Notes: generated by a model from the sequence alone, not told the origin. Counted from the stretch's first letter, positions 18,701 through 42,730 are shown. The stretch: DNA of 64,000 nucleotides from Antedon mediterranea (GCF_964355755.1 NC_092673.1:18225648-18289647); one strand, 5' to 3'. A program made the numbers and translations.

Positions 18701-21700
18701 ACCCTCTTCTGAAGCATGTAAAGAGGTATTGTTTCATCAGTTTGGACAACTATATAATTTTGTTATAGATATTGTTGTTGATATTTGGTTAATAAGTTAA
18801 TAAAGTTAATAACTTTAATATTTAAAATCATTTTTGTGGAGTGCTTTTAGAGGTTTCGTTTTAATTTGTCATTGTATTTTGGTGTTTTAGATAATAAAAA
18901 ACAGTCTATAGCTAAAATGAAAATCTACCACTTATAGAATTAAACTTGATGTGTAATTTCAGTTATTAATAATTATAATATTAAATAAATTACAATATTC
19001 AATAATAACAATTGATTTATGGAAACTTCTATATTAAAAAAAATTACAATGATATAATCTTAATATAATATCAATTTAAAGTGTGAGCAACTTAAGGTAC
19101 AGTTGTTAAAACTAGTTGCATTGGCTTTTCATTGCAATAGATGCAGATCAATAGCACAGCAAAATTGAATGAATATTTTATTTTATCTTTGTTAAAGATT
19201 TTGTATGTACAATTTTGATAGTGATAATTCACCTAAGATGTTTATTTTATTTATTGTTGTACTTTTCCCTCTTGTAGACCCAACTGTTGTTATATTGAAA
19301 GAGTTAATAAACACAACATTTTAAAAATGTGTGTTGCTGATTCAAAGGTTGCTACATTGGGTTATATTGGTCAATTGCAGTTCTTAATCAACATTCAATT
19401 AATATCTTTAGGTTTTGTTAACAATCCAGAAGTCATTTGAACCTACTAAAGATGGTGGTAGAAGAGGGATTCAATATGAGAGATGCATACTTTGTGAATG
19501 TAGTAATACATCAGAAAAGAAGCACATTCAAAATCTTGAAGATTTCCAGCATGAGAAGTTGACATGCTCCAAAACTGGCGTTTTTTTTACGATGGATGTT
19601 ACACGTTACAAGCGGCTATTAGGAGGTAACAATAATAATAGTGACATAAGAATAGGAAGAGATTCAGCAGTAGCAATAAATAATAATACAATTAGGGCCT
19701 GTCCACACGTACGGCGTAAGCCTGACGTCAGCGGTGGTGCCAGGATCTTTCCGGGAGCTAAATACTCCGACCCCGAAGCCCCCAGAAGCAACGCATTATA
19801 GTGTAATTTGAGGCCGTTTTAATCAGATTTAGGGTAGCCAACTTTTTTCCATTTTTTATGGTACATAAATAAAATACTGTGTGAAAAACACATTGCACGA
19901 GATCCGATGCGATGACTGTGTAAATCCATTCTTTCAAATTTAAAAATGAAGTTTTTAAAGTTCAATATGCCTATCATAGAAAATATATGCGAACGTAAAA
20001 CCAACCCACGGGCCAAGAGGTATCGTTATAATCGCAGAGACGTAGGCAGGTTGCTGTATGAAGGTGCGAAAATTGTAAAGGTGCGAGACTCAACACCTAT
20101 AGGCTGATCTGTAAGAACATTTTGAAAAATAGACCTGCTAGGTACCTGGAAATTTCACTTATATAGGTCCATATTGATAAATGAAACGAAACTATAAGTC
20201 TACAGAACCAGACCGCCATGGATGGTTGGGTGGAGCTAAGAAAATTGTCAAAAATAGAGCTGCTAGGTCCCTGCAAAACATTGAAATATGAAACGAAATT
20301 ATAGGTCCAGCCCACCATGGTTGGGGGGGAGCTAAGAACATTTTGAAAAATAGAGTTGCTAGGTCCCGGAAATTTAACTTATTACACTTCGAAACATAAA
20401 ACAAAATATATACCGGTACGTCTCCAGAACCAGCCATACCATGGAAATAAAAAAAAATTGAAAAAATATAGCTCTAGGTTCCCAGACAATGCACTAACTG
20501 TATATTGTACATCGGAATATCAAACGAAATGTATCCTTGACAAGCTCTATAATTGGGGACGGTTGAGCTAATTTTGAAAACTAGAGCTGTAAGGTCTTCA
20601 AAAATTACACTTATACTTTTAAAAAATTCAGGCCTTAGAGGCCTAAAAAAGTAACCCTTTTTACCTTTTATTTGGAGGGGAATGCGTCCGCAAGCGTAGA
20701 CCATTTTCCGTCGGGGAAATCAGTTTATTTCCCAGATGTGAATCTGGAATTCCAATGTACGATGAGCAGTTCATGACATACAGGACATTGGAAATGTAAT
20801 AACTTAGCTATAAGATGTTGGCTAAACGAAAATAGCATGTTTTTTGTTTAGTAATGTAGGCGAGCCTACAGTGAAACGTCTATTTCAGGTACCCCACGGT
20901 ACAGAGGGTTAATCGTAAATTAAAAAATTAAACATACAAACAATAAAATAGATCGCGAACATAATTCGTACCCTTTTACTGTATAGCGTACGTCGATACA
21001 TAAGTACACGTCGGTAAACTTCGCCTGTAAAGTAACTACAGTACACATTCTGGTCCCTGGATGGAACATGATATCACACGTAAACCGCAATGGTCCGGGC
21101 CCAATGTTAAACGATTCGTACAAAGGGACACCGCCAGACAAGTGCGTACCTATTGTTTATTAGATTGCTGGCAATAATGCATGCATAATAAAGTGTAATA
21201 GCCCTCCGACGTACTTAACAAAAATGGAACGTCGCTGTTTTCTAGGCACTGAAGCTACGAAGTGAACGAGAACGATTTTTACTGTATGTTATATTCCCCG
21301 ACGAAAACTACTCGCGTTCCACGACGGGGGAGGGCTAGGCTCCCCGACGAGGGGGGCTACAGCCCCGTAACCCCCCCGCTGGCGCCACCACTGCCTGACG
21401 TACGCCTTGCGTAGCCTAGGCAGTGGCGTTATTAAAGACAGCTGCATACCCCACCTTAACTAGCCCCATGGAGCTAACTCCAGTGATGCTTGAATAATTT
21501 TGACCTTATTTAAGGATATTTCATGTTTTTACTGTATCTATTGTAAATGTTATTGCTGCATACCCCACCTTAACTAGCACCATGGAGCTAACTCCAGTGA
21601 TTTCAAGATATTTACCAAATACTTCATGTTTTTACTGTATCTATTGTAAATGTTATTGCTGCATACCCCACCTTAACTAGCACCATGGAGCTAACTCCAG

Positions 21701-24700
21701 TGATTTCAAGATATTTACCAATTACTTCATGTTTTTACTGTATCTATTGTAAATGTTATTGCTGCATACCCCACCTTAACTAGCCCCATGGAGCTAACTC
21801 CAGTGATTTCAAGATATTTACCAATTACTTCATGTTTTTACTGTATCTATTGTAAATGTTATTGCTGCATACCCCACCTTAACTAGCCCCATGGAGCTAA
21901 CTCCAGTGATTTCAAGATATTTACCAATTACTTCATGTTTTTACTGTATCTATGGTAAATGTTATTGCTGCATACCCCACCTTAACTAGCACCATGGAGC
22001 TAACTCCAGTGATTTCAAGATATTTACCAATTACTTCATGTTTTTACTGTATCTATTGTAAATGTTATTGCTGCATACCCCACCTTAACTAGCCCCATGG
22101 AGCTAACTCCAGTGATTTCAAGATATTTACCAATTACTTCATGTTTTTACTGTATCTATTGTAAATGTTATTGCTGCATACCCCACCTTAACTAGCCCCA
22201 TGGAGCTAACTCCAGTGATTTCAAGATATTTACCAATTACTTCATGTTTTTACTGTATCTATGGTAAATGTTATTGCTGCATACCCCACCTTAACTAGCA
22301 CCATGGAGCTAACTCCAGTGATTTCAAGATATTTACCAATTACTTCATGTTTTTACTGTATCTATTGTAAATGTTATTGCTGCATACCCCACCTTAACTA
22401 GCCCCATGGAGCTAACTCCAGTGATTTCAAGATATTTACCAATTACTTCATGTTTTTACTGTATCTATTGTAAATGTTATTGCTGCATACCCCACCTTAA
22501 CTAGCACCATGGAGCTAACTCCAGTGATTTCAAGATATTTACCAATTACTTCATGTTTTTACTGTATCTTTTGTAAATGTCATTGCTGCATACCCCACCT
22601 TAACTAGCACCATGGAGCTAACTCCAGTGATTTCAAGATATTTACCAATTACTTCATGTTTTTACTGTATCTTTTGTAAATGTCATTGCTGCATACCCCA
22701 CCTTAACTAGCACCATGGAGCTAACTCCAGTGATTTCAAGATATTTACCAATTACTTCATGTATTTACTGTATCTTTTGTAAATGTCATTGCTGCATACC
22801 CCACCTTAACTAGCACCATGGAGCTAACTCCAGTGATTTCAAGATATTTACCAATTACTTCATGTATTTACTGTATCTATTGTAAATGTTATTGCTGCAT
22901 ACCCCACCTTAACCAGCCCCATGGAGCTAACTCCAGTGATTTCAAGATATTTACCAATTACTTCATGTATTTACTGTATCTATTGTAAATGTTATTGCTG
23001 CATACCCCACCTTAACTAGCACCATGGAGCTAACTCCAGTGATTTCAAGATATTTACCAATTACTTCATGTTTTTACTGTATCTATTGTAAATGTTATTG
23101 CTGCATACCCCACCTTAACTAGCACCATGGAGCTAACTCCAGTGATTTCAAGATATTTACCAATTACTTCATGTATTTACTGTATCTATTGTAAATGTTA
23201 TTGCTGCATACCCCACCTTAACTAGCACCATGGAGGTAACTCCAGTGATTTCAAGATATTTACCAATTACTTCATGTATTTACTGTATCTATTGTAAATG
23301 TTATTGCTGCATACCCCACCTTAACTAGCACCATGGAGCTAACTCCAGTGATTTCAAGATATTTACCAATTACTTCATGTATTTACTGTATCTATTGTAA
23401 ATGTTATTGCTGCATACCCCACCTTAACTAGCACCATGGAGCTAACTCCAGTGATTTCAAGATATTTACCAATTACTTCATGTATTTACTGTATCTATTG
23501 TAAATGTTATTGCTGCATACCCCACCTTAACTAGCACCATGGAGCTAACTCCAGTGATTTCAAGATATTTACCAATTACTTCATGTATTTACTGTATCTA
23601 TTGTAAATGTTATTGCTGCATACCCCACCTTAACTAGCACCATGGAGCTAACTCCAGTGATTTCAAGATATTTACCAATTACTTCATGTATTTACTGTAT
23701 CTATGGTAAATGTTATTGCTGCATACCCCACCTTAACTAGCACCATGGAGCTAACTCCAGTGATTTCAAGATATTTACCAATTACTTCATGTATTTACTG
23801 TATCTATTGTAAATGTTATTGCTGCATACCCCACCTTAACTAGCACCATGGAGCTAACTCCAGTGATTTCAAGATATTTACCAATTACTTCATGTATTTA
23901 CTGTATCTATTGTAAATGTTATTGCTGCATACCCCACCTTAACTAGCACCATGGAGCTAACTCCAGTGATTTCAAGATATTTACCAATTACTTCATGTAT
24001 TTACTGTATCTATTGTAAATGTTATTGCTGCATACCCCACCTTAACTAGCACCATGGAGCTAACTCCAGTGATTTCAAGATATTTACCAATTACTTCATG
24101 TATTTACTGTATCTATTGTAAATGTTATTGCTGCATACCCCACCTTAACTAGCACCATGGAGCTAACTCCAGTGATTTCAAGATATTTACCAATTACTTC
24201 ATGTATTTACTGTATCTATTGTAAATGTTATTGCTGCATACCCCACCTTAACTAGCACCATGGAGCTAACTCCAGTGATTTCAAGATATTTACCAATTAC
24301 TTCATGTTTTTACTGTATCTATTGTAAATGTTATTGCTGCATACCCCACCTTAACTAGCACCATGGAGCTAACTCCAGTGATTTCAAGATATTTACCAAT
24401 TACTTCATGTATTTACTGTATCTATTGTAAATGTTATTGCTGCATACCCCACCTTAACTAGCACCATGGAGCTAACTCCAGTGATTTCAAGATATTTACC
24501 AATTACTTCATGTATTTACTGTATCTATTGTAAATGTTATTGCTGCATACCCCACCTTAACTAGCACCATGGAGCTAACTCCAGTGATTTCAAGATATTT
24601 ACCAATTACTTCATGTATTTACTGTATCTATTGTAAATGTTATTGCTGCATACCCCACCTTAACTAGCACCATGGAGCTAACTCCAGTGATTTCAAGATA

Positions 24701-27700
24701 TTTACCAATTACTTCATGTTTTTACTGTATCTATTGTAAATGTTATTGCTGCATACCCCACCTTAACTAGCACCATGGAGCTAACTCCAGTGATTTCAAG
24801 ATATTTACCAATTACTTCATGTATTTACTGTATCTATTGTAAATGTTATTGCTGCATACCCCACCTTAACTAGCCCCATGGAGCTAACTCCAGTGATTTC
24901 AAGATATTTACCAATTACTTCATGTATTTACTGTATCTATTGTAAATGTTATTGCTGCATACCCCACCTTAACTAGCCCCATGGAGCTAACTCCAGTGAT
25001 TTCAAGATATTTACCAATTACTTCATGTATTTACTGTATCTATTGTAAATGTTATTGCTGCATACCCCACCTTAACTAGCCCCATGGAGCTAACTCCAGT
25101 GATTTCAAGATATTTACCAATTACTTCATGTATTTACTGTATCTATTGTAAATGTTATTGCTGCATACCCCACCTTAACTAGCACCATGGAGCTAACTCC
25201 AGTGATTTCAAGATATTTACCAATTACTTCATGTTTTTACTGTATCTATGGTAAATGTTATTGCTGCATACCCCACCTTAACTAGCACCATGGAGCTAAC
25301 TCCAGTGATTTCAAGATATTTACCAATTACTTCATGTTTTTACTGTATCTATTGTAAATGTTATTGCTGCATACACCACCTTAACTAGCACCATGGAGCT
25401 AACTCCAGTGATTTCAAGATATTTACCAATTACTTCATGTTTTTACTGTATCTATGGTAAATGTTATTGCTGCATACACCACCTTAACTAGCACCATGGA
25501 GCTAACTCCAGTGATTTCAAGATATTTACCAATTACTTCATGTTTTTACTGTATCTATTGTAAATGTTATTGCTGCATACCCCACCTTAACTAGCACCAT
25601 GGAGCTAACTCCAGTGATTTCAAGATATTTACCAATTACTTCATGTATTTACTGTATCTATTGTAAATGTTATTGCTGCATACCCCACCTTAACTAGCAC
25701 CATGGAGCTAACTCCAGTGATTTCAAGATATTTACCAATTACTTCATGTATTTACTGTATCTATTGTAAATGTTATTGCTGCATACCCCACCTTAACTAG
25801 CACCATGGAGCTAACTCCAGTGATTTCAAGATATTTACCAATTACTTCATGTTTTTACTGTATCTATGGTAAATGTTATTGCTGCATACCCCACCTTAAC
25901 TAGCACCATGGAGCTAACTCCAGTGATTTCAAGATATTTACCAATTACTTCATGTTTTTACTGTATCTATTGTAAATGTTATTGCTGCATACACCACCTT
26001 AACTAGCACCATGGAGCTAACTCCAGTGATTTCAAGATATTTACCAATTACTTCATGTTTTTACTGTATCTATGGTAAATGTTATTGCTGCATACACCAC
26101 CTTAACTAGCACCATGGAGCTAACTCCAGTGATTTCAAGATATTTACCAATTACTTCATGTTTTTACTGTATCTATTGTAAATGTTATTGCTGCATACCC
26201 CACCTTAACTAGCACCATGGAGCTAACTCCAGTGATTTCAAGATATTTACCAATTACTTCATGTTTTTACTGTATCTATTGTAAATGTTATTGCTGCATA
26301 CCCCACCTTAACTAGCACCATGGAGCTAACTCCAGTGATTTCAAGATATTTACCAATTACTTCATGTTTTTACTGTATCTATTGTAAATGTTATTGCTGC
26401 ATACCCTACCTTAACTAGCACCATGGAGCTAACTCCAGTGATTTCAAGATATTTACCAATTACTTCATGTATTTACTGTATCTATTGTAAATGTTATTGC
26501 TGCATACCCCACCTTAACTAGCACCATGGAGCTAACTCCAGTGATTTCAAGATATTTACCAATTACTTCATGTATTTACTGTATCAATTGTAAATGTTAT
26601 TGCTGCATACCCCACCTTAACTAGCACCATGGAGCTAACTCCAGTGATTTCAAGATATTTACCAATTACTTCATGTATTTACTGTATCTATTGTAAATGT
26701 TATTGCTGCATACCCCACCTTAACTAGCACCATGGAGCTAACTCCAGTGATTTCAAGATATTTACCAATTACTTCATGTATTTACTGTATCTATTGTAAA
26801 TGTTATTGCTGCATACCCCACCTTAACTAGCACCATGGAGCTAACTCCAGTGATTTCAAGATATTTACCAATTACTTCATGTATTTACTGTATCTATTGT
26901 AAATGTTATTGCTGCATACCCCACCTTAACTAGCACCATGGAGCTAACTCCAGTGATTTCAAGATATTTACCAATTACTTCATGTATTTACTGTATCAAT
27001 TGTAAATGTTATTGCTGCATACCCCACCTTAACTAGCACCATGGAGCTAACTCCAGTGATTTCAAGATATTTACCAATTACTTCATGTTTTTACTGTATC
27101 TATTGTAAATGTTATTGCTGCATACCCCACCTTAACTAGCACCATGGAGCTAACTCCAGTGATTTCAAGATATTTACCAATTACTTCATGTATTTACTGT
27201 ATCAATTGTAAATGTTATTGCTGCATACCCCACCTTAACTAGCACCATGGAGCTAACTCCAGTGATTTCAAGATATTTACCAATTACTTCATGTATTTAC
27301 TGTATCAATTGTAAATGTTATTGCTGCATACCCCACCTTAACTAGCACCATGGAGCTAACTCCAGTGATTTCAAGATATTTACCAATTACTTCATGTATT
27401 TACTGTATCTATTGTAAATGTTATTGCTGCATACCCCACCTTAACTAGCACCATGGAGCTAACTCCAGTGATTTCAAGATATTTACCAATTACTTCATGT
27501 ATTTACTGTATCAATTGTAAATGTTATTGCTGCATACCCCACCTTAACTAGCACCATGGAGCTAACTCCAGTGATTTCAAGATATTTACCAATTACTTCA
27601 TGTATTTACTGTATCAATTGTAAATGTTATTGCTGCATACACCACCTTAACTAGCACCATGGAGCTAACTCCAGTGATTTCAAGATATTTACCAATTACT

Positions 27701-30700
27701 TCATGTTTTTACTGTATCTATTGTAAATGTTATTGCTGCATACCCCACCTTAACTAGCACCATGGAGCTAACTCCAGTGATTTCAAGATATTTACCAATT
27801 ACTTCATGTATTTACTGTATCAATTGTAAATGTTATTGCTGCATACACCACCTTAACTAGCACCATGGAGCTAACTCCAGTGATTTCAAGATATTTACCA
27901 ATTACTTCATGTATTTACTGTATCAATTGTAAATGTTATTGCTGCATACCCCACCTTAACTAGCACCATGGAGCTAACTCCAGTGATTTCAAGATATTTA
28001 CCAATTACTTCATGTATTTACTGTATCAATTGTAAATGTTATTGCTGCATACACCACCTTAACTAGCACCATGGAGCTAACTCCAGTGATTTCAAGATAT
28101 TTACCAATTACTTCATGTATTTACTGTATCAATTGTAAATGTTATTGCTGCATACCCCACCTTAACTAGCACCATGGAGCTAACTCCAGTGATTTCAAGA
28201 TATTTACCAATTACTTCATGTATTTACTGTATCTATTGTAAATGTTATTGCTGCATACCCCACCTTAACTAGCACCATGGAGCTAACTCCAGTGATTTCA
28301 AGATATTTACCAATTACTTCATGTATTTACTGTATCTATTGTAAATGTTATTGCTGCATACCCCACCTTAACTAGCACCATGGAGCTAACTCCAGTGATT
28401 TCAAGATATTTACCAATTACTTCATGTTTTTACTGTATCTATTGTAAATGTTATTGCTGCATACCCCACCTTAACTAGCACCATGGAGCTAACTCCAGTG
28501 ATTTCAAGATATTTACCAATTACTTCATGTATTTACTGTATCAATTGTAAATGTTATTGCTGCATACACCACCTTAACTAGCACCATGGAGCTAACTCCA
28601 GTGATTTCAAGATATTTACCAATTACTTCATGTATTTACTGTATCTATTGTAAATGTTATTGCTGCATACACCACCTTAACTAGCACCATGGAGCTAACT
28701 CCAGTGATTTCAAGATATTTACCAATTACTTCATGTATTTACTGTATCAATTGTAAATGTTATTGCTGCATACCCCACCTTAACTAGCACCATGGAGCTA
28801 ACTCCAGTGATTTCAAGATATTTACCAATTACTTCATGTATTTACTGTATCTATTGTAAATGTTATTGCTGCATACCCCACCTTAACTAGCACCATGGAG
28901 CTAACTCCAGTGATTTCAAGATATTTACCAATTACTTCATGTATTTACTGTATCAATTGTAAATGTTATTGCTGCATACCCCACCTTAACTAGCACCATG
29001 GAGCTAACTCCAGTGATTTCAAGATATTTACCAATTACTTCATGTATTTACTGTATCAATTGTAAATGTTATTGCTGCATACACCACCTTAACTAGCACC
29101 ATGGAGCTAACTCCAGTGATTTCAAGATATTTACCAATTACTTCATGTTTTTACTGTATCTATTGTAAATGTTATTGCTGCATACCCCACCTTAACTAGC
29201 ACCATGGAGCTAACTCCAGTGATTTCAAGATATTTACCAATTACTTCATGTATTTACTGTATCAATTGTAAATGTTATTGCTGCATACACCACCTTAACT
29301 AGCACCATGGAGCTAACTCCAGTGATTTCAAGATATTTACCAATTACTTCATGTATTTACTGTATCAATTGTAAATGTTATTGCTGCATACCCCACCTTA
29401 ACTAGCACCATGGAGCTAACTCCAGTGATTTCAAGATATTTACCAATTACTTCATGTATTTACTGTATCAATTGTAAATGTTATTGCTGCATACACCACC
29501 TTAACTAGCACCATGGAGCTAACTCCAGTGATTTCAAGATATTTACCAATTACTTCATGTATTTACTGTATCAATTGTAAATGTTATTGCTGCATACCCC
29601 ACCTTAACTAGCACCATGGAGCTAACTCCAGTGATTTCAAGATATTTACCAATTACTTCATGTATTTACTGTATCTATTGTAAATGTTATTGCTGCATAC
29701 CCCACCTTAACTAGCACCATGGAGCTAACTCCAGTGATTTCAAGATATTTACCAATTACTTCATGTATTTACTGTATCTATTGTAAATGTTATTGCTGCA
29801 TACCCCACCTTAACTAGCACCATGGAGCTAACTCCAGTGATTTCAAGATATTTACCAATTACTTCATGTTTTTACTGTATCTATTGTAAATGTTATTGCT
29901 GCATACCCCACCTTAACTAGCACCATGGAGCTAACTCCAGTGATTTCAAGATATTTACCAATTACTTCATGTATTTACTGTATCAATTGTAAATGTTATT
30001 GCTGCATACACCACCTTAACTAGCACCATGGAGCTAACTCCAGTGATTTCAAGATATTTACCAATTACTTCATGTATTTACTGTATCTATTGTAAATGTT
30101 ATTGCTGCATACACCACCTTAACTAGCACCATGGAGCTAACTCCAGTGATTTCAAGATATTTACCAATTACTTCATGTATTTACTGTATCAATTGTAAAT
30201 GTTATTGCTGCATACCCCACCTTAACTAGCACCATGGAGCTAACTCCAGTGATTTCAAGATATTTACCAATTACTTCATGTATTTACTGTATCTATTGTA
30301 AATGTTATTGCTGCATACCCCACCTTAACTAGCCCCATGGAGCTAACTCCAGTGATTTCAAGATATTTACCAATTACTTCATGTATTTACTGTATCTATT
30401 GTAAATGTTATTGCTGCATACCCCACCTTAACTAGCCCCATGGAGCTAACTCCAGTGATTTCAAGATATTTACCAATTACTTCATGTATTTACTGTATCA
30501 ATTGTAAATGTTATTGCTGCATACCCCACCTTAACTAGCACCATGGAGCTAACTCCAGTGATTTCAAGATATTTACCAATTACTTCATGTATTTACTGTA
30601 TCAATTGTAAATGTTATTGCTGCATACCCCACCTTAACTAGCACCATGGAGCTAACTCCAGTGATTTCAAGATATTTACCAATTACTTCATGTATTTACT

Positions 30701-33700
30701 GTATCAATTGTAAATGTTATTGCTGCATACCCCACCTTAACTAGCACCATGGAGCTAACTCCAGTGATTTCAAGATATTTACCAATTACTTCATGTTTTT
30801 ACTGTATCTATTGTAAATGTTATTGCTGCATACCCCACCTTAACTAGCACCATGGAGCTAACTCCAGTGATTTCAAGATATTTACCAATTACTTCATGTA
30901 TTTACTGTATCAATTGTAAATGTTATTGCTGCATACCCCACCTTAACTAGCACCATGGAGCTAACTCCAGTGATTTCAAGATATTTACCAATTACTTCAT
31001 GTATTTACTGTATCAATTGTAAATGTTATTGCTGCATACCCCACCTTAACTAGCACCATGGAGCTAACTCCAGTGATTTCAAGATATTTACCAATTACTT
31101 CATGTATTTACTGTATCAATTGTAAATGTTATTGCTGCATACCCCACCTTAACTAGCACCATGGAGCTAACTCCAGTGATTTCAAGATATTTACCAATTA
31201 CTTCATGTATTTACTGTATCTATTGTAAATGTTATTGCTGCATACCCCACCTTAACTAGCACCATGGAGCTAACTCCAGTGATTTCAAGATATTTACCAA
31301 TTACTTCATGTATTTACTGTATCTATTGTAAATGTTATTGCTGCATACCCCACCTTAACTAGCCCCATGGAGCTAACTCCAGTGATTTCAAGATATTTAC
31401 CAATTACTTCATGTATTTACTGTATCAATTGTAAATGTTATTGCTGCATACCCCACCTTAACTAGCACCATGGAGCTAACTCCAGTGATTTCAAGATATT
31501 TACCAATTACTTCATGTATTTACTGTATCAATTGTAAATGTTATTGCTGATATAAAAACAAGCTACTCAGCTGCTCTTGGCACATCGACACAAATGCCTT
31601 TTACTTATTATAGTATTTGAGGTCATTTATTTTGAAATGGATTCTATGAGAATTATTTGTATATTATAGTTTATTGTATATTGTAAATATTTTTTATAAC
31701 ATTTTTTACAATTTTTCCTAAATTTTGATTGTCTATTTCTTTTTCTTTTCAAGATGAAACAAAACCTTCAAAGAAGGAAGAATCAAACCAAGGTAAAGTA
31801 GACATTAATTATGTGTGCCAACTGTATTAAAATATTCTAAACCAAAATTGTCATCAATTGTCTTATTCTTAATGAATAATAATATTCAAATATTAACTGG
31901 TTTTAGGTAAGTGGTTCAAAGGTCAAGGTGATCTAGAGACTAAAAAATTTCCCAAAACATCACCAGCCATTAGTTTAGAATAATGTTAGCAGCTAAATAA
32001 GAAATGAAATGAAACAAAAACAACTCTTATAAATGGTCAATGGTCTGCCTTTCTTAAACATTCTCTATTTTCTATTTTAACTATTTTGTTTGATATTTGT
32101 TAAAGATGTATAAAAACATGAATAATTTATTAGTCCATTTTACAGTTTCAATACATTTTTTTCACTTCCATAGAAAAAAAAAACAAGCGAACATAATTAT
32201 TTATTCAAGTAAAATAATTTTGTTTTCGATTTTTGGTCAAAGTGAATAAATATATGTGATACTATGGCACAAAAAAAAATGTTTAAACATTGTTTTTGTG
32301 AGACAATATATCTTTAATAATATCTGTTTTTTAAAGATTTTTTTAGAACTTGTTACATCTTATTCTTCTTGTAATGATATAGATTTACGATGTCAATATG
32401 CGTACTTCTAATTTCTTACATCACATTTTAATCATTAGCTCAAGGCTAGCAGGAGTGACTTCATTAGTCTAAAATTGACAAAAATGTGTAAATTTGAGAA
32501 ATGTATAGTACTTTATTTGTTATGTGTCTATACTTTAACAAATATATGTTGCTGTAACTCTATCTATCAAAATAAATATTAATTTCATTTTCAGAGAAAA
32601 AAATAATAATTTTAAAAACTTCGATGAAAAAATTAATATATCATTTTTGCCTTACAGAAATTTCAGAGAATAATTTCCGGCAACTGTTAACTGATACAGC
32701 AGCATGGTTTGATGGACTTGGATATCTCAAAATATTGAAAGTTTTATACAAAGACCTTCTTTCAAAATCTAACGTTGAGGTGGAAAGAGCTAGAAGTGTT
32801 TGGGATCTGCTACAGGATTTAAGAGCTTCAGGAAGTTTGAGTACATCAAATCTTACTCTTCTATATGACACAATAACAGTAACCAAGCAATTTGGCTTCC
32901 AGTCAAACGTTGAGAATCAACCTCCAAAAGATATTAAGGATCATGTAGTATCAATGTTGACACCATTCAGACAGAAGGTTTATCAACTGGGAGTAGAACT
33001 TACGAAGGATGAAGTATCAACACTTGCCAGGTTATTTAACAATATATTGGTAAAGACATATCAAGACAGCTGGAGTATGATAATGGACTTTGAACATAGA
33101 GGGATCATTGATGAGGATTTCACAAAGATGGTTGTGTTTCGTAGAGTTTTAGAACAAAATGGAATGACAAAAGCTAGGAAGATTTTCATTGATGGTTGGT
33201 TGGTTTATTTGTTTTTAGTTCATCATCATGGTTCATTGTTAAAACATATAGTACATACTGTAGTACACTTCAATCAAGTAAAAGTACTGTAACAAATTAA
33301 ACAATTTAGGATTCAAATTATTATGATGTCCCTGTCTGTCTGCTATTATAGTTGATTAAGGATATCAACCAACATTCTGTTAAATGTCAATTAGGCTGAA
33401 TTAAATGACAAGTTAGTAAAATAACAATAATATGCTCAATGAGTCCAATGGAAAATGAGCTGAACTGAAAAGTGTGTGTGTATTCCATGATATTATCCCT
33501 ATACATCAGATTGACCCAAACCTTTGAAACATAATAATAATCTGCATTATAAAATTGTGAATGACTCATAATTCCTGTAAAGCCCAGCATACCATTTGAG
33601 GGTCAAAGTACCGACTCTGAGGCTGATTCAGACCTTTGCTATTGCAAGAGGATCATTAAGTTGTTTAAGAAAACCACAGGTTGACAGCATACCCATCACC

Positions 33701-36700
33701 ACCTCAGTGCCAATTTATGCAGCCGGACACTTAAACCATTATAAACTTAAGTTTAGATTATATGGCAGCATAAATGTTGTAAAATTATAGAGATCAACAC
33801 TTCTGCCTATCCCAGTTTATTTACATTTCCTAATTAAGAGCTTGTTTCAATGACAATTAGCTTACTGAAACACTTCTTTTAATCATCATCCATCCTACTG
33901 TAGGTGGATTGAAAAATCCAGAAGTCATCCAGTAGTCATACTCTACATAATTATATGTATTCTAAATAAGTATATGTCTTCTGGTACAGGCATGTCTAGG
34001 TCTTATGATGCAAGTGTGTCTTCTGGTGCAGGCGCATCTTCTGGTGCAGGTGTGTCTTCTGATGCAGGTGTGTCTTATGGTGCGTAAAAAAACAACATTT
34101 CCCGCACAATTTCACATAAATATCTGTATTCTGACAGATTTGCAAAATGTTTAGTTAACAAATTTAAAACTTCAAACACTTTACAACTTCCCAAACAAAA
34201 GTTGCGGAAAGAAGTATAAAGGAAAAAAAAAGAAATCTTATAATCACAATGGAACCAATCAAGTTGATGATATAACTATTTATTACACCTAAGTAGATTC
34301 TTGTCATTTTATTGAACAATTGGGTCACATGATGGAAAAATAACTGAACTAAATGTTATATACAATACATGTACTGCAATTTTGCGGTGGAAATTACTAT
34401 TTAAATCTTTTTGCTATTATAGGTTATTTAAAGTTGATGCTTATTTTTGCTTAACAATAAAAATGAATGAAATGAAAATTAATGTTGGGACTGAAATATT
34501 GATGGTATATTTAACCACTTTAGATTCAGATTTGCATCAAGATCACTATAGCCGACTGAAAAAAAACATAGCATCCTTAGGTTTAATGATAAGAAAGAAT
34601 GTTCCTGGAGACGGCAATTGTTTTTTCTATTGCATACAAGATCAATTGAAAAGAATGCAACTGCCTGTACAACCTGTAGCAAACATGAGAACTGAACTTG
34701 TAGAATTCTTGCAACAATTGGTGAGACTGAAACTTTTTACAATACTATACAGTAAATGTGCAATAAAATATTACTATATAGGGGTTAATTAACACTTTAC
34801 ATATTTTAGGATAACGACGACCCACTTAAGGAACATGTAAATGATCATTACCTACATAACCTTGAACAAAATGGAACTTGGGTTGATGAAGTTGCAGTGC
34901 GTGCAATGGCCAGGCTTCTCAAATGCAACATAAGGATAGTTACAAGTCAGAAACAAAGTTCTGAATCTGGATATTTGTTCAATGACATCAAAGGAAATTT
35001 GAACTCTGATGACCAGCAGCTTCTTCTTGGTCTGATAGGAGAGGATCATTATGTTAGTTTAGGTAGGATATATGGATGTTGTCACGAACTCCTCTCACGT
35101 ATGTTTCCGAGCGGTTGAAAATACTTTAGGAACTCCCTTGTGACATAAAAGTATACACACAAAATCCACAAAGTTGTAAAATAACTAAAAAACAAAGCTT
35201 TAATTTCAATCAACTTCAACTTTTAACAATCCAGTAAGCACTTTAAACAACAGCTTCACAATGACTTTACAATATAATATCCAACCTCTAATCCAACCTC
35301 TAATCCAACCACCTTCTTCAAAATAAATGCTTCAATCAAAAATCCTTCTCCCACTTACAATTGTCATACTTCCCCTTATATACAATATGTTCATAACCTT
35401 CTAGATCATTCCTTATACTTCTTCTTATTCTATTGATTACAGTTTCTATTAATAGGACTTCTGGAATGTTCTTGATTGTTCTTATTAATTATACATGGTT
35501 TCTTAAATCAAAACATCTAATTCTAGAATGTTCATGTAAATACTATGTTACTCTATATGTTAGGGAATGGTAATTTATTACACTCCCCCCTCTTTCTGAG
35601 CTCAAAACTCTTTCTTGGAGTTTTGAGGGGCAAGTATACACGGACGTGGCAAAAGTTAACCCACTCCTATTCTATAAAACTTAAATACGCCATAATAACA
35701 TACAACATAATCATTAATAATTACTAATAATGAACAAACAATATTCATGTAAATTTGTCGGAATGGTTCACTAACAATTACTGACATAGGAATCATAAAA
35801 TCCTTAAATTTAGTTTTATACTTTGAGGCTTTACAATACTCTGTCAACGAAATATCATGTGAAAATTTCAAAACACTATTACTGCAATGATATAAAACCA
35901 CTAATTTCTCTATGGGTTCTGTCTGGTGTTTAGTAAAAACATGCCTAAATAAAATTCCGTCCTTACAGACCGTCATATCTTCCCGACATAAACCTTCTTT
36001 CCTTTCAATATCTTCCCGATGTAAACGTTCTTGGTTATCCATCATCTGCTGCATCAGAAGACTCTGTTGTTGTATTTGTTGCTTCATTAACAACACCAAA
36101 AAGTCTGTACTGCTGTACACTTTACCGGATATTGTTGTTGATTGTTTATCAGCCATATTTTAAATCTGGATGAGGGTCTTGTTACTAGTTAATCGTAGTT
36201 ACCGAGACGTTCACAAGTCTACTGTTCCAAATAAATAATGTACTGTTCTTAAAACAATGTTTGTGTACTTACGATTAAACAAAACGTAGCACCACGGCTT
36301 CCGTAAAATCTCACAGTATCGTAAGTACCGCTTTAACAAAATATCAATAAAAGTACAGTTGATCCTAAAACAGCCACCAATCTATGGCAAAATACAATAG
36401 ATCAAACTGCTACCACAAAATATCACAACCGTAGATAAATACACAGTTAAGTCGAACAGTAGATCGAAATAACCGCTGCCACCAAATTAGGCTGAACACC
36501 GCTGCCACCAAATTAGGCTGAACACCGCTGCCACCAAATTATGTCACGAACTCCTCTCACGTATGTTTCCGAGCGGTTGAAAATACTTTAGGAACTCCCT
36601 TGTGACATAAAAGTATACACACAAAATCCACAAAGTTGTAAAATAACTCAAAAACAAAGCTTTAATTTCAATCAACTTCAACTTTTAACAATCCAGTAAG

Positions 36701-39700
36701 CGCTTTAAACAACAGCTTCACAATGACTTTACAATATAATATCCAACCTCTAATCCAACCACCTTCTTCAAAATAAATGCTTCAATCAAAATCCTTCTCC
36801 CACTTACAATTGTCATACTTCCCCTTATATACAATATGTTCATAACCTTCTAGATCATTCCTTATACTTCTTCTTATTCTATTGATTACAGTTTCTATTA
36901 ATAGGACTTCTGGAATGTTCTTGATTGTTCTTATTAATTATACATGGTTTCTTAAATCAAAACATCTAATTCTAGAATGTTCATGTAAATACTATGTTAC
37001 TCTATATGTTAGGGAATGGTAATTTATTACAATGTCTAGATCCCCCGAATTTGTTGTACTCTTATACTTTAAAAATGTCAGTACCATTACTATTTTGGGG
37101 GAAAATAGCCCCAATTCAGATAGACCTTTCAGTGTCTATCTGTCGGATGTAATTGAGCTGCATCTGTTACTTTAGCTGATCAAGCCCGGGAAAATCATAT
37201 GCATAATGTGTCAAATATGATGGTCTCTTGTACAGAGACGCAATGAAGTTTTAAAGTAGCCTACATTGATGAAACCAGTGAAATTTTTAATTGTACAAGT
37301 TACGTATAAACAATGTGTTTCAAGCAACACACAAAACAACACCCTGCATGAACTTGTAACACAGAAAATGGATAATGAATGTCGTAACTGAAAATTTCCA
37401 GGAATTACCCTGAGAATTATCGCTCTATTTTACCAATCCAACTTTCTTGATGTTTCAGAAAGAAATGGAATGACAAAAGCTAGGAAGAATTTCATTGATG
37501 GTTGGTTGGTTTATTTGTTTTTTGTTCATCATCATGGTGCATTGTTAAAACATATAGTACATACTGTAGTACAATACAATCAAGTAAGAGTACTGTAACA
37601 AATTAAACAATTTAGGCAGATTCAAATTATTATGATGTCCCTGTCTGTCTGCTGTTATGGTTGATTAAGGATATCAACCAACATTCCGTTAAATGGCAAT
37701 TCAGCTGAATTGAATGACAAGATAGTAAAATAACAATAATATGCTTAATGAGTCCAATGGAAAATGAGCTGAACTGAAAAGTATTTTTGTATTCCATGAT
37801 ATTATCCCTATAAATCAGATTGACCCAAACCTTTGGAACATAATAATAATCTGCATTATAAAATTGTGAATGACTCATAATTCCTGTAAGGCTCAGCATA
37901 CCATTTGAGGGTCAAATTAGTACCGACTCTTTACTATTGCAAGAGGATCATTAAGTTGTATTTTTATTTTATGTCTTTAGGCAATGTGGCCAAGGATTAC
38001 TAATAGTGAATTAATCACTGTCCTATCAGATAGGTGGTAGTCCTCCTGATACAGGGGCTATTTTGTGAACCTGTTCACAGGTTGAGAGCGTACCCATCAC
38101 CACCTCCATGCCAATTTATGTAGCCGGACACCAGTTTATTTACATTTCCTAATTAATAGTTTGTTTCAATGACAATTAGCTTACTGAAACACTTCTTTTA
38201 ATCATCATCCATCCTAGGTGGATTGAAAAATCCAGAAATCATCCAGTAGTCATATTCTACATAATTATATGTATTCTAAATAAGTATATATGTCTTCTGG
38301 TACAGGCATGTCTTTTGGTACTGGCACATCTGGATCTTCTGGTGCAGGTGTGTCGTCTGGTGCAGGTGTGTCTTCTGGTGCAGGTGTGTCTTCTGGTGCA
38401 GACGCATCTTCTGGTGCAGACGAATCTTCTGGTGCAGGTGTGTCTTCTGGTGCAGGCGCATCTTCTGGTGCAGGTGTGTCTTCTGATGCAGTTGTGCCGT
38501 CAGGTGCAGGTGTGTCTTCAGGTGAATATCAAGGCATTAGAACAAGGCTTTATTACCTTTCAATGTTAAGTGAATGTAGTTGTTTATGCAGTTAAAATCT
38601 GTATTTATTAGGCAACCTTAAAATAACTTGAGTTTAAGTTTTTCTTTGACTTTCTCCAAATCTATTCCGTTCATTTCTTTTTTAGGTAGACCTGTGAAGC
38701 AAAACATTATACATTAATCCTGTTTGTTGCTTAAACATTCGTTCCACTCTGTGGTTCACACAATATCAGCTTAGATATTTGAACTTTCCAAAAACTTTTA
38801 TTTATTAAATATTTCACTGTTATTTAACAGTTTATATTAATTTTTAATAGTCAGTAGTTATCGTTTAGCATACTTAAAATAACATCTTGTAGCTAGTTGT
38901 ACTAATAATAAATGTAATTTAATTATTTTACAACATTCCAAAAACTTTTTTCTACAGATGGGGAAGATGAAGATGAATCGCTCATCAAGAAACCAGGTAT
39001 AATCCATCTGTAATCTTTTTTCTGTTAATAACATGTGTATAGATACTTGTTTTATTTATCTTTTTTTTTAATGACTTGATGAAAACTATTGTTAAATGTA
39101 TTAGTGTATTAATCAGCAATTTGAAATTAGTATAGTAGTTGTTTTTTTAAATAGATAAATGTTGTATCATTCCTTGTAAATTTGATATCATTATATAGTA
39201 TTATTTGTATGTACAAAGGCCAGCAGAGTTTCCCTGCTAGATAATAACATTTTTAATTAATTGAAATATCCGTGCCTTTTGATTAAAACAACTAAATAAT
39301 ACTGTATACTGTACATGCCATTCAAACTATATATTTTTTATTTAATCAAGGCTTTGGTACACATTTTAACATAATATTAAAATGGTTTATGTTTAGCATT
39401 TAAACATTTATTTACTTTCAATAACATAGTAACAAAATAAAAGGAGATAAATAATATGACAAAGTAACATTGAAGGAGGACTTGTGTTGAGCAAGCCTGA
39501 AACATAAAATAAAGTGACTGTGTTCATACTTTGTTAACCTAAATAGTGCATACTATTACACACCATGTGACCCACAATAGTCCAATCAAATGACAGGAAT
39601 TATTTAGGTGTTTTATAACACTGTATACTGTACTGTACACATTCAAACTATATATTTTTTATTTAATCAAGGCTTTGATCCACATTTTAACATAATATTA

Positions 39701-40862
39701 AATGTTTTAGGTTTAACTGTGTTTATACTTTGGGGTTAGAGTGTTTAATTGTTTAATTATTTCTCACCATATCTATTACTTAATGAGCTTGCTTTGTTGT
39801 TATTTCAGGTACACATCATGGTGGGTAAGTATTTTCCACATATGTATTGTTATTTGATAAAATTAAAATATATTTTTTGTTAATAAATGGGCAGTTTTTC
39901 ATTTCATTTATTTTGCCACATAAAATTTATAACAATACAATTAAAAAAAAACAAAATAAAAAAGATAAAAGAGATTACTTCGGTCATCGGTGACGGTGAC
40001 ACGTACGAACAATTGTAGAAATAATTTATCCCTACTAGTATGATATGATATAAATAACATTTTCAGAGATAATCTGTTTGATGTATTTGTTAAGTTTCCA
40101 ATATCATCACCTTGAACTGTGACCATGTAAAATTCCTGTGTATAATGAAATAAAGTTTATCTGTATCTGTACACTCCGCCTCCCCACAAAGGCCAGCAAG
40201 ATTACCAAAAGCGTCTTGTGGCTCTCCGCATCATTGTTAAAAGTTCAACTACGATCATTTGAAAGATCAGGTTGAAAGAAACAACAATTTTAATGTTAAT
40301 ACTTGATTAGAATTTTAATTATTTAATTGTACTTTTTTAATTCTAGTCGAAAGCACAAGAAACGTAGCAAACGTTGCAAGTTGTTATAAGGTATAGTATT
40401 TAACTTGTGTATATAACAGTTTAAAAAATTGAATTTGTTTCTAAAGTCATGCACTGTTTTTCTATAAAAAAAAACTACTGTAGTTTCAATATGTAAGAAA
40501 TCCTTTGTTTTCTTATAAAATGCTTTTTTTTGTAGATTAAATTATGTAAAATTTTCATTTTGATTACAGCTCACTGGTGGATAGTTACTGTAATTTGGTT
40601 TATTCTATTGGCAACCTTTGTCATCTTAATTATTATATATGACGGCTTAGCAGCAATAATTGGCATTGGTATTGGATTGTTGGTAACTTTTGGTGGTGGC
40701 TGTATCTGGTGTGTGAATAAGAAAGTCACCAAGTCTCGTACTCAGTCAACAAACGCAGCAGCAGACGGACAGACAGTACGCTATTCTGAAAAAAGGAGAG
40801 ATACTGTAAACAGACCTTGTATAAAGAATATCAAAGATAGATGTAAAATGAAAAATATGTGA
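719..40862 (+). CDS. Multi-exon Roco-family gene (5' end outside window): Roc-COR, DEDx2, DEDx2, Roc-COR, DEDx2, OTU, membrane anchor
   Basis: 36 hand-called exons with GT-AG boundaries total 7385 nt and stay in frame from 719 to TGA at 40860-40862. Roc motifs WDYAGQ/THMD and GQEGVGKT/TDGI/WDHGGQ; OTU motifs GDGNC and HYVS. Could be two adjacent genes split near 9.3-11.3 kb. Confidence 0.7.
1138..1274 (+). CDS. Roc1 exon with G3 motif (SIWDYAGQLDYYITHR)
   Basis: Roc-type WD(F/Y)AGQ..YY.TH signature; AG acceptor, gtatgt donor. Confidence 0.9.
1405..3050. repeat. Intronic minisatellite, 41-bp unit, ~40 copies
   Basis: Unit acaatagaagatgttgggcaataataaccaacataatactg; period measured 1446 to 1487. 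Confidence 0.97.
3508..4285 (+). CDS. Roc1 C-terminal exons 3508-3597, 3687-3878, 4043-4285 (G4 ATHMD, start of COR VPVKW)
   Basis: FFLTNKVSYCVTFN, FWIRSI, PPICLVATHMD, EVPVKWVNL; all phase 0 with canonical splice sites. Confidence 0.88.
4545..6357 (+). CDS. COR1 exons 4545-4739, 4822-4992, 5085-5387, 5977-6069, 6153-6357
   Basis: COR-like motifs YLNVTGIIMY, GVLEETLLRYLW, FLVPCRI, FLPDAVYHTLVV; continuous frame across GT-AG introns. Confidence 0.85.
6841..7395 (+). CDS. Exon encoding tandem DED-like pair 1
   Basis: FNELKYDL..LKCCLFDVIP..DLFNVLHDNG..N..ILVE then LSSYRKRLF..WDVVFYLE, resembling caspase-8/cFLIP DEDs; phase 1-1. Confidence 0.78.
7602..7748 (+). CDS. Pro/Glu-rich linker exon with internal duplication PVPKPExLPAxDLES x2
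   Basis: tatag acceptor, gtaat donor, phase 1-1. Confidence 0.7.
7869..8393 (+). CDS. Exon encoding tandem DED-like pair 2
   Basis: LDMLKVLCKDLI..MELFNLLKQTGHL..NFKVL then FTTYRQTLIDFG..WTVILDLEERGIL; phase 1-1. Confidence 0.78.
9156..9242 (+). CDS. Gly/Ser linker exon (GMSFGTGTAGSCGAGTSVSSDGKRARNIL), chimeric
   Basis: tacag acceptor, gtaagt donor, phase 1-1; 5' part matches exon 38306, 3' part matches end of exon 6841-7395. Confidence 0.6.
11148..11306 (+). mobile_element. Probable tRNA-derived SINE
   Basis: Degenerate A-box-like tggtggttaac and B-box-like ggattcaatcc, A-rich tail. Confidence 0.45.
11388..11556 (+). CDS. Roc2 first exon with P-loop (YTKALKEG..LKVIGQEGVGKTCLINACLGK)
   Basis: GxxxxGKT preceded by the P..I...G..AY..AL.EG segment typical of invertebrate Roco proteins; phase 1-2. 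Confidence 0.92.
11628..12060. repeat. ~78-bp degenerate tandem repeat (~5.5 copies) built on the splice acceptor of the next exon
   Basis: Recurring cttcagattt...agcataatgtttacagcact, similar to the true acceptor cttcag|atttgagaaggagcataaagttacag. Confidence 0.85.
12059..12707 (+). CDS. Roc2 exons 12059-12144 (FEKEHKVTDGI, G2) and 12643-12707
   Basis: Switch-I T-D-G-I motif; phases 2-1 and 1-0 fit neighbouring exons. Confidence 0.82.
12967..13684 (+). CDS. Asn/Asp/His low-complexity exon (NHNNDD)n inserted inside Roc2
   Basis: tgttag acceptor, gtaat donor; open frame (ORF 12997); phase 0-1 bridges exon 12707 (phase 0) to exon 14270 (phase 1). Confidence 0.7.
14270..16276 (+). CDS. Roc2 exons 14270-14418 (WDHGGQ), 15364-15453, 15625-15804 (GTHKS), 16025-16276 (VPLKW)
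   Basis: NIWDHGGQLIYHGLHR, MFMTLQALYIVVFDLS, PTILIVGTHKS, FAIEN, DVPLKW; same intron positions as Roc1. Confidence 0.9.
16466..16970 (-). mobile_element. Truncated inverted copy of the hAT-type element at 19729-21393
   Basis: Starts cagtgatggcgccag (TIR-like); reverse-complement similarity to 21335-21393 and about 20560-20965. Confidence 0.75.
16976..17121 (+). mobile_element. Possible SINE 3' fragment with (tacaaa)n tail
   Basis: ccttaggcaagatgctttactctcattgcc resembles SINE core sequences; short tandem tail. Confidence 0.35.
17332..19625 (+). CDS. COR2 exons 17332-17517, 17800-17994, 18246-18548, 18654-18725, 19412-19625
   Basis: LTFLYDLGEIVY, VLDPMQLV, GILEEDLLLELW, FFVPLRL, YLPDVLF; canonical splice sites; frame continuous. 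Confidence 0.87.
19729..21393. mobile_element. Non-autonomous hAT DNA transposon (1665 bp)
   Basis: TIRs cagcggtggtgccag / ctggcgccaccactg (13 of 15 match); 8-bp TSD cctgacgt at 19721-19728 and 21394-21401; no transposase ORF. Confidence 0.88.
21441..31548. repeat. Intronic satellite, 103-bp unit, ~98 copies (10.1 kb)
   Basis: Unit begins gctgcataccccaccttaactagcaccatggagctaactcc; period 21555 to 21658; no spacers. Confidence 0.98.
31754..31792 (+). CDS. 39-nt linker exon (DETKPSKKEESNQ)
   Basis: Strong polypyrimidine tract plus caag, gtaaag donor, phase 1-1. Confidence 0.7.
32658..33194 (+). CDS. Exon encoding tandem DED-like pair 3
   Basis: FRQLLTD..WFD..LKVLYKDLL..WDLLQDL..GSL..SNLTLL then LTPFRQKVYQLG..WSMIMDFEHRGII; clearly homologous to exon 7869-8393; phase 1-1. 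Confidence 0.8.
33155..34080 (+). repeat. Intragenic segmental duplication, copy A (copy B 37460-38520)
   Basis: Near-identical exon end, intron and Gly/Ser exon in both copies (compare ORFs 33387- and 37630-). Confidence 0.92.
33990..34079 (+). CDS. Gly/Ser linker exon (SSGAGV-type repeats)
   Basis: tacag acceptor, gtgcgt donor, phase 1-1. Confidence 0.6.
34524..35062 (+). CDS. OTU-like cysteine protease (deubiquitinase) domain, exons 34524-34720 and 34810-35062
   Basis: VPGDGNCFFYCIQDQL (catalytic Cys), GTWVDEVAVRAMA, LGLIGEDHYVSL (catalytic His). Confidence 0.9.
35080..37031 (-). mobile_element. Internally deleted Gypsy-type LTR element (1952 bp)
   Basis: TG..CA LTRs 35080-35582 and 36542-37031, near identical; 4-bp TSD atgt; PPT (ctcccccctctttct on +); tRNA-Leu-type PBS; minus ORF 35656-36156 with integrase-like remnants (KDGILFR, LVV, EPF). 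Confidence 0.92.
37459..37500 (+). CDS. 42-nt exon (ERNGMTKARKNFID) derived from the duplicated DED exon end
   Basis: tgtttcag acceptor, gttggt donor identical to 33195; phase 1-1. Confidence 0.5.
38306..38521 (+). CDS. Gly/Ser-rich linker exon with 18-nt (SSGAGV) repeats
   Basis: tacag acceptor, gtgaat donor, phase 1-1; ORF 38290. Confidence 0.72.
38958..38996 (+). CDS. 39-nt exon (DGEDEDESLIKKP)
   Basis: ttttttctacag acceptor, gtat donor, phase 1-1. Confidence 0.68.
39809..40389 (+). CDS. Alternative C-terminal micro-exons 39809-39824 and 40347-40390 encoding GTHHGGRKHKKRSKRCKLL* (polybasic plus CaaX)
   Basis: tatttcag/gtaagt and ttctag/gtatag sites; 16+44=60 nt; TAA at 40387-40389 directly after CKLL. 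Confidence 0.62.
40570..40862 (+). CDS. Terminal exon with two hydrophobic (transmembrane) segments and basic tail
   Basis: ttacag acceptor, phase 1; WWIVTVIWFILLATFVILIIIY-DG-LAAIIGIGIGLLVTFGGGCIWCV-NKK; TGA stop. Confidence 0.72.
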
Positions 40863-41237
40863 AACAAAATGGGAGTTTTTTTCACGATGATGAATGACTA
40901 GAGGTTTAGAGGGTGTTAAATTAAAGATGGCCATCCAAGGGTCAATATCACAATTATTTTCCCCTCAAGGAATTCAGCCTTGCTTGTCAAATGAAACAAC
41001 AACATTGATTTCAGGATTTTTGTAAAATACAATAAACTTTTTAAAATCAGAACTCTCATTAGAATTTTACAAAATTCAGTTTAAAGTTTTTTTAACGTTT
41101 CAAATTCTATTATTGATTTTATGAAAAGATTAAAATTAAAATTAGACTTTTTAGTTTAATAAAGTGGGTAATGCAATGCCAGTATTATGTATGTATATAA
41201 TATCTCATGTTTGATATTTAGTTTTATTAAGCTTAAC

Positions 41238-42730
41238 ATGCTGTAGTAGACAGTTGTAAACATATTGAAGCTGTAACTCAGTTGTCAATTGTGTACTCAA
41301 TGCTGTAGTAGACAGTTGTCAACATATAGAAGCTGTAACTCAGTTGTCAATTGTGTGTACTCAATGCTGTAGTAGACAGTTGTCAACATATAGAAGCTGT
41401 AACTCAGTTGTCAATTGTGTACTCAATGCTATAGTAGACAGTTGTCAACATATTGAAGCTGTAACTCAGTTGTCAATTGTCTACTCAATGCTGTAGTAGA
41501 CAGTTGTCAACATATTGAAGCTGTAACTCAGTTGTCAATTGTGTACTCAATGCTGTAGTAGACAGTTGTCAACATATTGAAGCTGTAACTCAGTTGTCAA
41601 TTGTGTACTCAATGCTGTAGTAGACAGTTGTCAACATATTGAAGCTGTAACTCTGTTGTCAATTGTGTACTCAATGCTGTAGTAGACAGTTGTCAACATA
41701 TTAAAGCTGTAACTCTGTTGTCAATTGTGTACTCAATGCTGTAGTAGACAGTTGTCAACATATTGAAGCTGTAACTCAGTTGTCAATTGTGTACTCAATG
41801 CTGTAGTAAACAGTTGTCAACATATTGAAGCTGTAACTCAGTTGTCAATTGTGTACTCAATGCTGTAGTAGACAGTTGTCAACATATTAAAGCTGTAACT
41901 CAGTTGTCAATTGTGTACTCAATGCTGTAGTAGACAGTTGTCAACATATTGAAGCTGTAACTCAGTTGTCAATTGTGTACTCAATGCTGTAGTAGACAGT
42001 TGTCAACATATTGAAGCTGTAACTCAGTTGTCAATTGTGTACTCAATGCTGTAGTAGATAGTTGTCAACATATTGAAGCTGTAACTCAGTTGTCAATTGT
42101 GTACTCAATGCTGTAGTAGACAGTTGTCAACATATAGAAGCTGTAACTCAGTTGTCAATTGTCTACTCAATGCTGTAGTAGACAGTTGTCAACATATTGA
42201 AGCTGTAACTCAGTTGTCAATTGTGTACTCAATGCTGTAGTAGACAGTTGTCAACATATTGAAGCTGTAACTCTGTTGTCAATTGTGTACTCAATGCTGT
42301 AGTAGACAGTTGTCAACATATTGAAGCTGTAACTGAGTTGTCAATTGTGTACACAATGCTGTAGTAGACAGTAGTCAATATATTGAAGCTGTAACTCAGT
42401 TGTCAATTGTGTACTCAATGCTGTAGTAGACAGTTGTAAACATATTGAAGCTGTAACTCAGTTGTCAATTGTGTACTCAATGCTGTAGTAAACAGTTGTC
42501 AACATATTGAAGCTGTAACTCAGTTGTCAATTGTCTACTAAATGCTGTAGTAGACAGTTATCAACATATTGAAGCTGTAACTCAGTTGTCAATTGTGTAC
42601 TCAATGCTGTAGTAGACAGTTGTCAACATATAGAAGCTGTAACTCAGTTGTCAATTGTGTACTCATTGCTGTAGTAGACAGTTGTCAACATATTAAAGCT
42701 GTAACTCAGTTGTCAATTGTGTACTCAATG
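41238..42730. repeat. Minisatellite, 62-bp unit, ~24 copies
   Basis: atgctgtagtagacagttgtcaacatattgaagctgtaactcagttgtcaattgtgtactca. Confidence 0.96.

Follow-up and report, generated by a model that had tools for sequence, protein, structure and literature searches.

The window considered here, i.e., the whole stretch of 64,000 nucleotides of Antedon mediterranea that was analysed (GCF_964355755.1, NC_092673.1:18225648-18289647), harbors on its plus strand a Roco-type gene, coding for a Roc GTPase domain followed by COR, whose 3' exons allow two C-terminal tails: a Lys/Arg-rich stretch ending in the CaaX-type prenylation box CKLL, and a two-pass transmembrane (TM) hairpin. These exons are real and the CaaX form is supported, whereas a splice switch between the two tails is unproven. 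We consider it probable that the form including two micro-exons (16 and 44 nt) is the main one, that a Lys codon turned into a stop made a polybasic CaaX tail out of a juxtamembrane segment, that the TM exon is now mainly an untranslated region (UTR), and that the anchors differ between paralogues. An earlier note on this DNA had proposed that alternative splicing sends the same protein to different membranes; the CaaX half of this proposal is borne out by the inclusion of the micro-exons in RNA and by a stop codon shared among copies, while the switch half is unsupported, the skipping of the micro-exons being unseen and the paralogues including the basic segment.

The tail consists of a 39-nt acidic linker exon (38958-38996, phase 1-1), a 16-nt micro-exon (39809-39824), a 44-nt exon (40347-40390), and the last exon (40570-41288), all on the plus strand and bordered by the expected AG and GT (for the last exon, by its acceptor at 40570). 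With both micro-exons included, the reading passes through a basic stretch, seven of nine residues being Lys or Arg, to CKLL and a TAA (40387-40389) that ends one base short of the junction; when 38996 is joined directly to 40570 (skip form), a 96-codon open reading frame (ORF) with two hydrophobic segments results (40572-40862; hydropathy up to 3.2). Each micro-exon on its own shifts the frame and the two together (16 + 44 = 60 nt) preserve it; thus, it is only the TAA that prevents the inclusion form from being read on through the hydrophobic exon. In that form the last exon represents the 3' UTR, its ORF being usable by the skip form only. Read in its alternative frame, the 44-nt exon leads to a stop that lies four codons inside the last exon. 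A second donor, after 39820, would shorten the 16-nt micro-exon to 12 nt and keep the hydrophobic exon in frame (computed only). The borders were checked and both forms were translated; the coordinates, the splice sites, and the two readings of the earlier note proved correct, including the location of the stop 1 nt before the last junction, which follows 40390.

Splice sites were scored with a crude position weight matrix (PWM), trained on the gene's 23 other exons and giving ranks within 38997-40570. The 16-nt exon has strong sites (acceptor first of 68 AG, donor tied for first of 103 GT); as for the 44-nt exon, its donor ranks fourth of 103 GT and its acceptor scores low, 3.7, which is inside the training range of 2.1-18.5. 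The CKLL-stop pattern alone is not rare, with one match in the window and 0.63 expected; at least five Lys/Arg plus C-x-[LIV]-[LM]-stop occurred in none of 300,000 random 42-mers of intron composition.

Five sequencing runs were found, none of them on record as RNA, and three were examined (X1, X2, and X3). X1 is called RNA only from its contig being spliced at GT..AG borders; X2 and X3 are DNA runs of sample S2, from which 52 contigs were placed (28 from X3 and 24 from X2). Over positions 40290-40700, X1 gave two contigs. The first one (250 nt, depth 35.7) embeds the 44-nt exon and jumps from 40388 to 40568 (179 nt) into the last exon; shifted by +2, the joint falls on GT..AG borders, corresponding to an intron at 40391-40569. 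At its loose upstream end the last 15 nt of the 39-nt exon are found unchanged, and next to them stands a 16-nt counterpart of 39809-39824 (12 of 16 positions alike); the contig is unbranched across the three tail junctions, with the exons in the order 39-nt, 16-nt, 44-nt, last exon. It represents a sister copy or an allele, differing from the window at eight positions in 172 nt; joints spliced in this way were absent from the two DNA runs. The second contig, from 40667 to 41288, has 34 differences and 55 gap letters and is consistent with 40570 opening the last exon, a condition for escape from nonsense-mediated decay. According to these data, both micro-exons are real and occur jointly, and it is in the CKLL frame that splicing enters the 44-nt exon. 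The RNA junctions by which the earlier note had proposed to check its claim were therefore seen, in the sister copy, across all three tail sites, and neither of two contrary outcomes that it had named was found: the micro-exons are included rather than left out, and exon 40347 is not read in its other open frame.

Concerning the stop codon, no difference is listed at 40387-40389 in the 52 DNA contigs. Three DNA sequence types span it, all ending in CKLL-stop with the basic run: type 1 is that of the window (no differences), type 2 has His>Gln and a 3-nt insertion that places an additional Cys two residues upstream of the CaaX Cys, and type 3 has His>Lys, Lys>Arg, and a 9-nt deletion. That the TAA might be a private nonsense allele, as the earlier note had feared, is ruled out by its being common to the three types. 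Moreover, both indels of the 44-nt exon are multiples of three (+3 and -9), and the two of the next intron measure 1 and 2 nt; although few (two events), the in-frame exon indels agree better with selection on the tail than with decay.

In the region 40505-40564, X2/X3 contigs branch at 40550 to an AG and an AT-rich sequence with an AATAAA-like signal replacing the hydrophobic exon, and another DNA contig of these runs has the hydrophobic exon behind an unlike intron. They are presumably other copies with other tails.

GGTase-I of yeast and mammals reads mainly a2 and X, a1 being flexible and X being L, F, I, M, or V (PMC10942308), and CKVL is prenylated in yeast reporters both by human FTase and by GGTase-I (PMC11152559). 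The tail agrees with this pattern in its Cys, four residues from the C-terminus of the expressed form (from the X1 junctions and the DNA stop), in its Leu at both a2 and X, and in the upstream basic run, which is kept in all three DNA types; it departs from the canonical CaaX at a1, which is Lys instead of an aliphatic residue. Three out of four predictors (PrePS, FlexPepBind, and Freq) score CKLL as 1 (PMC9231725), and the authors of that work suspect that there are prenylated but uncleaved motifs among the negatives of their yeast Ras61 screen. Judging from its sequence, CKLL is likely geranylgeranylated, perhaps without being cleaved and with the help of the basic run; together with geranylgeranylation, a tethering of the tail to the cytosolic face of membranes is predicted.

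The nearest relatives of the window gene are the A. mediterranea Roc-COR proteins P0001-P0013. The hydrophobic exon is 85% identical to the C-terminal TM segments of P0001 and 81% to those of P0002; in both proteins it is preceded by a basic segment ending in KFLK-D, which aligns with KLL-stop-A of the window and has a Lys in the column of the stop. The 44-nt exon is putatively homologous to this segment, mainly on the grounds of where it lies, its phase, and its composition; the models of the paralogues are automatic ones. The inclusion of the basic segment in the paralogues, with Lys for the stop, points to an evolutionary switch between gene copies rather than to isoforms.

A tree was obtained from 21 of the 26 crinoid matches (five were left out) plus the window gene. 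TM hairpins are present in 5 of these 21 Roc-COR proteins, on several branches, and CaaX in none; the window gene belongs to a supported clade of eight rows that contains four of the five hairpin proteins. A CaaX C-terminus was found in none of the 32 crinoid proteins examined, and the conservation of CKLL in orthologues, to which the earlier note had looked, is limited to sister copies in one species. Among 145 relatives of the DED exon (described below), three have a Cys at -4, none of them CaaL-like, and four have a hydrophobic tail, that of P0143 being unlike the window exon. The first 60 residues of the hydrophobic exon, probed against short proteins, retrieved one candidate and none at E <= 10; the ESM Atlas search returned nothing usable, and a metagenome scan returned 539 pattern matches, none confirmed. 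Since CaaX or CaaL endings occur in none of the crinoid or DED-exon relatives and TM hairpins are scattered over several branches, the TM tail is likely the older state, and the change would have gone from TM to CaaX.

The mechanism that we propose would thus involve the splicing of the two micro-exons as the main form, giving a protein that ends in the polybasic stretch and CKLL; the final Lys codon of a basic juxtamembrane (positive-inside) exon would have become a stop, and the older two-pass TM exon would have been left mainly as 3' UTR. Geranylgeranylated at CKLL, the DED-Roc-COR-DED-OTU protein would be tethered at the cytosolic face of membranes. The transcript would escape nonsense-mediated decay, for which the 50-nt rule is established, with a stop lying 1 nt before the last junction.

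Several observations weigh against this account. The X1 contig comes from a sister copy, and one of the two differences in its 44-nt piece is unlisted, so that the stop codon of the RNA copy is not read directly; the DNA evidence all derives from one sample, perhaps the assembly's own. The public model P0048 of A. mediterranea, to which four window exons are 100% identical, ends at 34084, without the tail. The similarity of the basic segments over 13 residues gives weak support to homology (shuffle p = 0.039 for P0001 and 0.19 for P0002), and the 44-nt exon falls outside the top five local matches over the 22 kb compared. The branching around the window gene is left open in the tree, and the hydrophobic ORF is still open. 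Lastly, CKLL is among the lowest-scoring motifs of the yeast Ras61 screen and is scored 0 by the support vector machine (SVM) predictor and 0 for cleavage (PMC9231725). For CKLL, whose prenylation is predicted, the published evidence is mixed.

If a true splice switch were operating, a prenylated form (micro-exons in) and a two-pass TM form (micro-exons skipped, or the 12-nt donor used) would reach different membranes; we regard this as unlikely. Both the skip and the 12-nt forms are in frame, no stop or indel is found among the differences listed in the first 130 nt of the hydrophobic ORF, the acceptor of the 44-nt exon is weak on the PWM, P0006 reaches the TM exon without a basic segment, and two changes specific to the window with respect to both P0001 and X1 (Arg>Ile and Asn>Ile) raise the hydrophobicity of the exon. 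However, neither the skip junction 38996>40570 nor a corresponding loose end was found in the two X1 contigs of the one run; as contigs drop rare forms, X1 shows that inclusion is dominant in one sample, not that skipping is absent. Furthermore, the GT of the 12-nt donor is missing in the X1 copy, and six of the seven differences listed between the window and X1 in the hydrophobic ORF change the residue: going from window to X1, four of them restore the P0001 residue and one puts a Ser in the first helix (Leu>Ser). These changes, as translated, do not show purifying selection, and an ORF open at about 5% divergence would need none. A wider version, according to which a prenylation signal was born in one step from a TM anchor, the positive-inside segment turning into the polybasic part of a CaaX box by the Lys-to-stop change, and was then tuned in sister copies by further basic residues and a second Cys, the TM exon being still reachable by skipping and either anchor usable by one immune-type gene, appears doubtful to us.

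It is quite improbable that the stop brought about a plain truncation, removing the anchor and leaving CKLL as a by-product, little or not prenylated, in copies that are soluble or decaying. The low position of CKLL in the Ras61 screen would agree with it, as would the chance expectation of a CKLL-stop in a window of this size and the presence, at this locus, of a recent duplication and a long terminal repeat (LTR)-like insertion. By the positive-inside rule, moreover, basic residues ahead of a TM helix are the norm. Yet both exon indels keep the frame and leave CKLL unchanged in the three types, the upstream chain is intact over 1,576 codons, the sister copy is transcribed and spliced, and three of the four predictors call CKLL prenylated. 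Hardly to be expected is a polymorphic stop, with some alleles or copies reading Lys at 40387-40389 and the genotype choosing between TM and CaaX under the same splicing: the unlisted X1 difference, near one end of the 44-nt piece, could fall in the stop codon, and the paralogues have Lys in that column, but the DNA contigs of sample S2 carry no listed variant at the stop, though their records reach 11-13 nt past it and, at other places, differences were listed that lie 11 nt from a record's end.

The tail resembles the polybasic and CaaL tails of GTPases of the Rho/Rac/Rap type, which are substrates of GGTase-I, in the Cys at -4, the aliphatic a2, the Leu at X, and the upstream Lys/Arg run. 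One copy carries a second Cys, like dually lipidated tails. Differently from Rho, Rac, and Rap, a1 is Lys, the CaaX is a predicted one, and the carrier is a Roco protein of 1,500 residues, with the tail far from the GTPase domain. With known Roco proteins the window gene shares Roc followed by COR, flanking death-fold domains, and a tandem cluster, whereas it has no LRR or kinase and harbors DEDs on both sides, an OTU module, and the CaaX tail. The Roco genes of brown algae and Trichoplax are clustered and shuffled, and algal ROCOs can have TM-like C-termini (PMC4104024, PMC11378527). A Death-Roc-COR-TIR protein of the clam Mactra antiquata (P0027) ends in CTIL, a canonical GGTase-I motif, possibly of independent origin; a CaaX-tailed Roco may therefore not be unique.

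The gain or loss of a CaaX at terminal exons is a known theme. Splice forms of OAS1 (p46/p42, PMC7612834) and of Drosophila complexin (PMC5445133) have the CaaX either present or absent; similarly, the choice of the terminal exon could decide prenylation in the window gene, whose tails are both open reading frames, but for OAS1 and complexin there is documentation of both forms, and the one lacking the CaaX has no anchor, whereas for the window gene the CaaX form alone was seen and its counterpart would be a transmembrane one. In bat GBP5 a single nonsense change removes the CaaX, with the downstream sequence little changed (PMC13128109), and GBPs use CaaX while the related atlastins use TM segments (PMC9005921). 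In bat GBP5 as in the window gene, one nonsense change would alter the anchor of an immune-type GTPase; however, the stop destroys the CaaX in the former and would create it in the latter, dropping the TM hairpin. A search of the open-access literature retrieved nothing on clusters of Roco genes in crinoids, on the prenylation of Roco proteins, or on a CaaX created by a stop in place of a TM anchor, and no paper combining CKLL with geranylgeranyl. If true, our reading would reveal, within a single genome and between closely related paralogues, a short evolutionary route by which a lipid anchor takes the place of a TM tail, and would provide a CaaX-anchored member of the Roco GTPases, which are not reported as prenylated in the literature searched. 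The tail exons also correct the public gene model at this locus.

The whole gene was modelled by hand, on the plus strand, as a chain of 25 exons from 7869 to 40390, with GT..AG at 24/24 introns. The only stop in its 1,577 codons is the TAA after CKLL (1,576 coding codons), and all 25 exons would form one mRNA, in the order DED pair, Roc, COR, DED pair, OTU, Ser/Gly linker, tail. The tail and the Roc-COR part would share a transcript, going by the open chain and by the same order in P0001 and P0006, but no read links them and P0048 splits the locus. The start codon of the model was not located, the N-terminal tandem DED exon (7869-8393) being assigned to the gene by modelling; this exon exceeds the Pfam DED cut-off (38.2 bits), is in frame with the chain, and is placed as in P0006, whose domain order (DED-Roc-COR-DED) is like that of the window gene. 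The 13 exons coding for Roc and COR (11388-19625) contain the P-loop (GQEGVGKT) and G3 (WDHGG) motifs of Roc, with COR directly after it in colinear matches to P0001-P0011; on single exons Pfam recognizes Roc (E = 0.0033) and COR-A (E = 7.6e-5), and over 540 aa this part has 82% identity with P0001, a protein above the Pfam cut-offs for Roc and COR-A. A long Asn/Asp/His repeat exon lies within the Roc domain (12976-13684), where P0001 has a similar but different repeat.

The next portion (31754-33194) comprises a 39-nt linker exon and the second tandem DED exon (32658-33194; Pfam DED E = 2.5e-8), 100% identical to P0048; an X1 contig begins at the acceptor of the DED exon. Two exons (34530-35062) code for an OTU protease with GDGNC and HY catalytic-type motifs, the second scoring 32.2 bits against a Pfam cut-off of 23.3. 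They are 47-49% identical, with the same break, to the DED-OTU-NACHT protein P0077 of Anneissia; the catalytic Asp/Cys and His motifs are present and the fold is assigned by Pfam, making this a candidate deubiquitinase. According to the model, the OTU exons would belong to the mRNA of the gene; the X1 cover on them is low and was not counted as evidence. A search of PDB sequences with the DED exon gave no matches, and one with the OTU exon gave two uninformative ones. A Ser/Gly/Ala-rich linker exon (38306-38521, phase 1-1) then follows, with AG/GT borders, open in the chain and resembling the linker of P0001. After it, at 38686-38720, an AG and a short in-frame reading to a stop were noticed by eye, possibly a further terminal exon.

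The window most likely lies in a tandem cluster of A. mediterranea Roco genes. A possible role in immune or cell-death signalling is suggested only by the DED, OTU, and Roc-COR content, by this clustering, and by what has been published on Roco expansions (PMC4104024, PMC11378527). A second, more divergent Roc-COR-DED gene, 25-45% identical to the proteins of the cluster, is located upstream (mapped over 1020-7771).

Around the OTU exons, the region 33146-34083 is about 89-91% like 37452-38540, and a candidate exon of 42 nt, in frame, has arisen there from the copied DED-exon end (37459-37500). The position of the two OTU exons between the copies of this duplication, together with the duplicated DED end, suggests a recent exon shuffling of OTU into this copy. 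The intron after OTU embeds direct repeats of about 500 nt, 97% identical (35080-35582 and 36542-37031), around a 1-kb interior; 35080-37031 is a putative high-copy, LTR-like, non-autonomous element. A tandem repeat with a 103-nt unit, in 97 copies that are 98% alike, occupies 21520-31549, inside the modelled intron that separates COR from the second DED exon. Finally, long gag-like and pol-like ORFs occupy 58910-63863, by eye a putative LTR retrotransposon.

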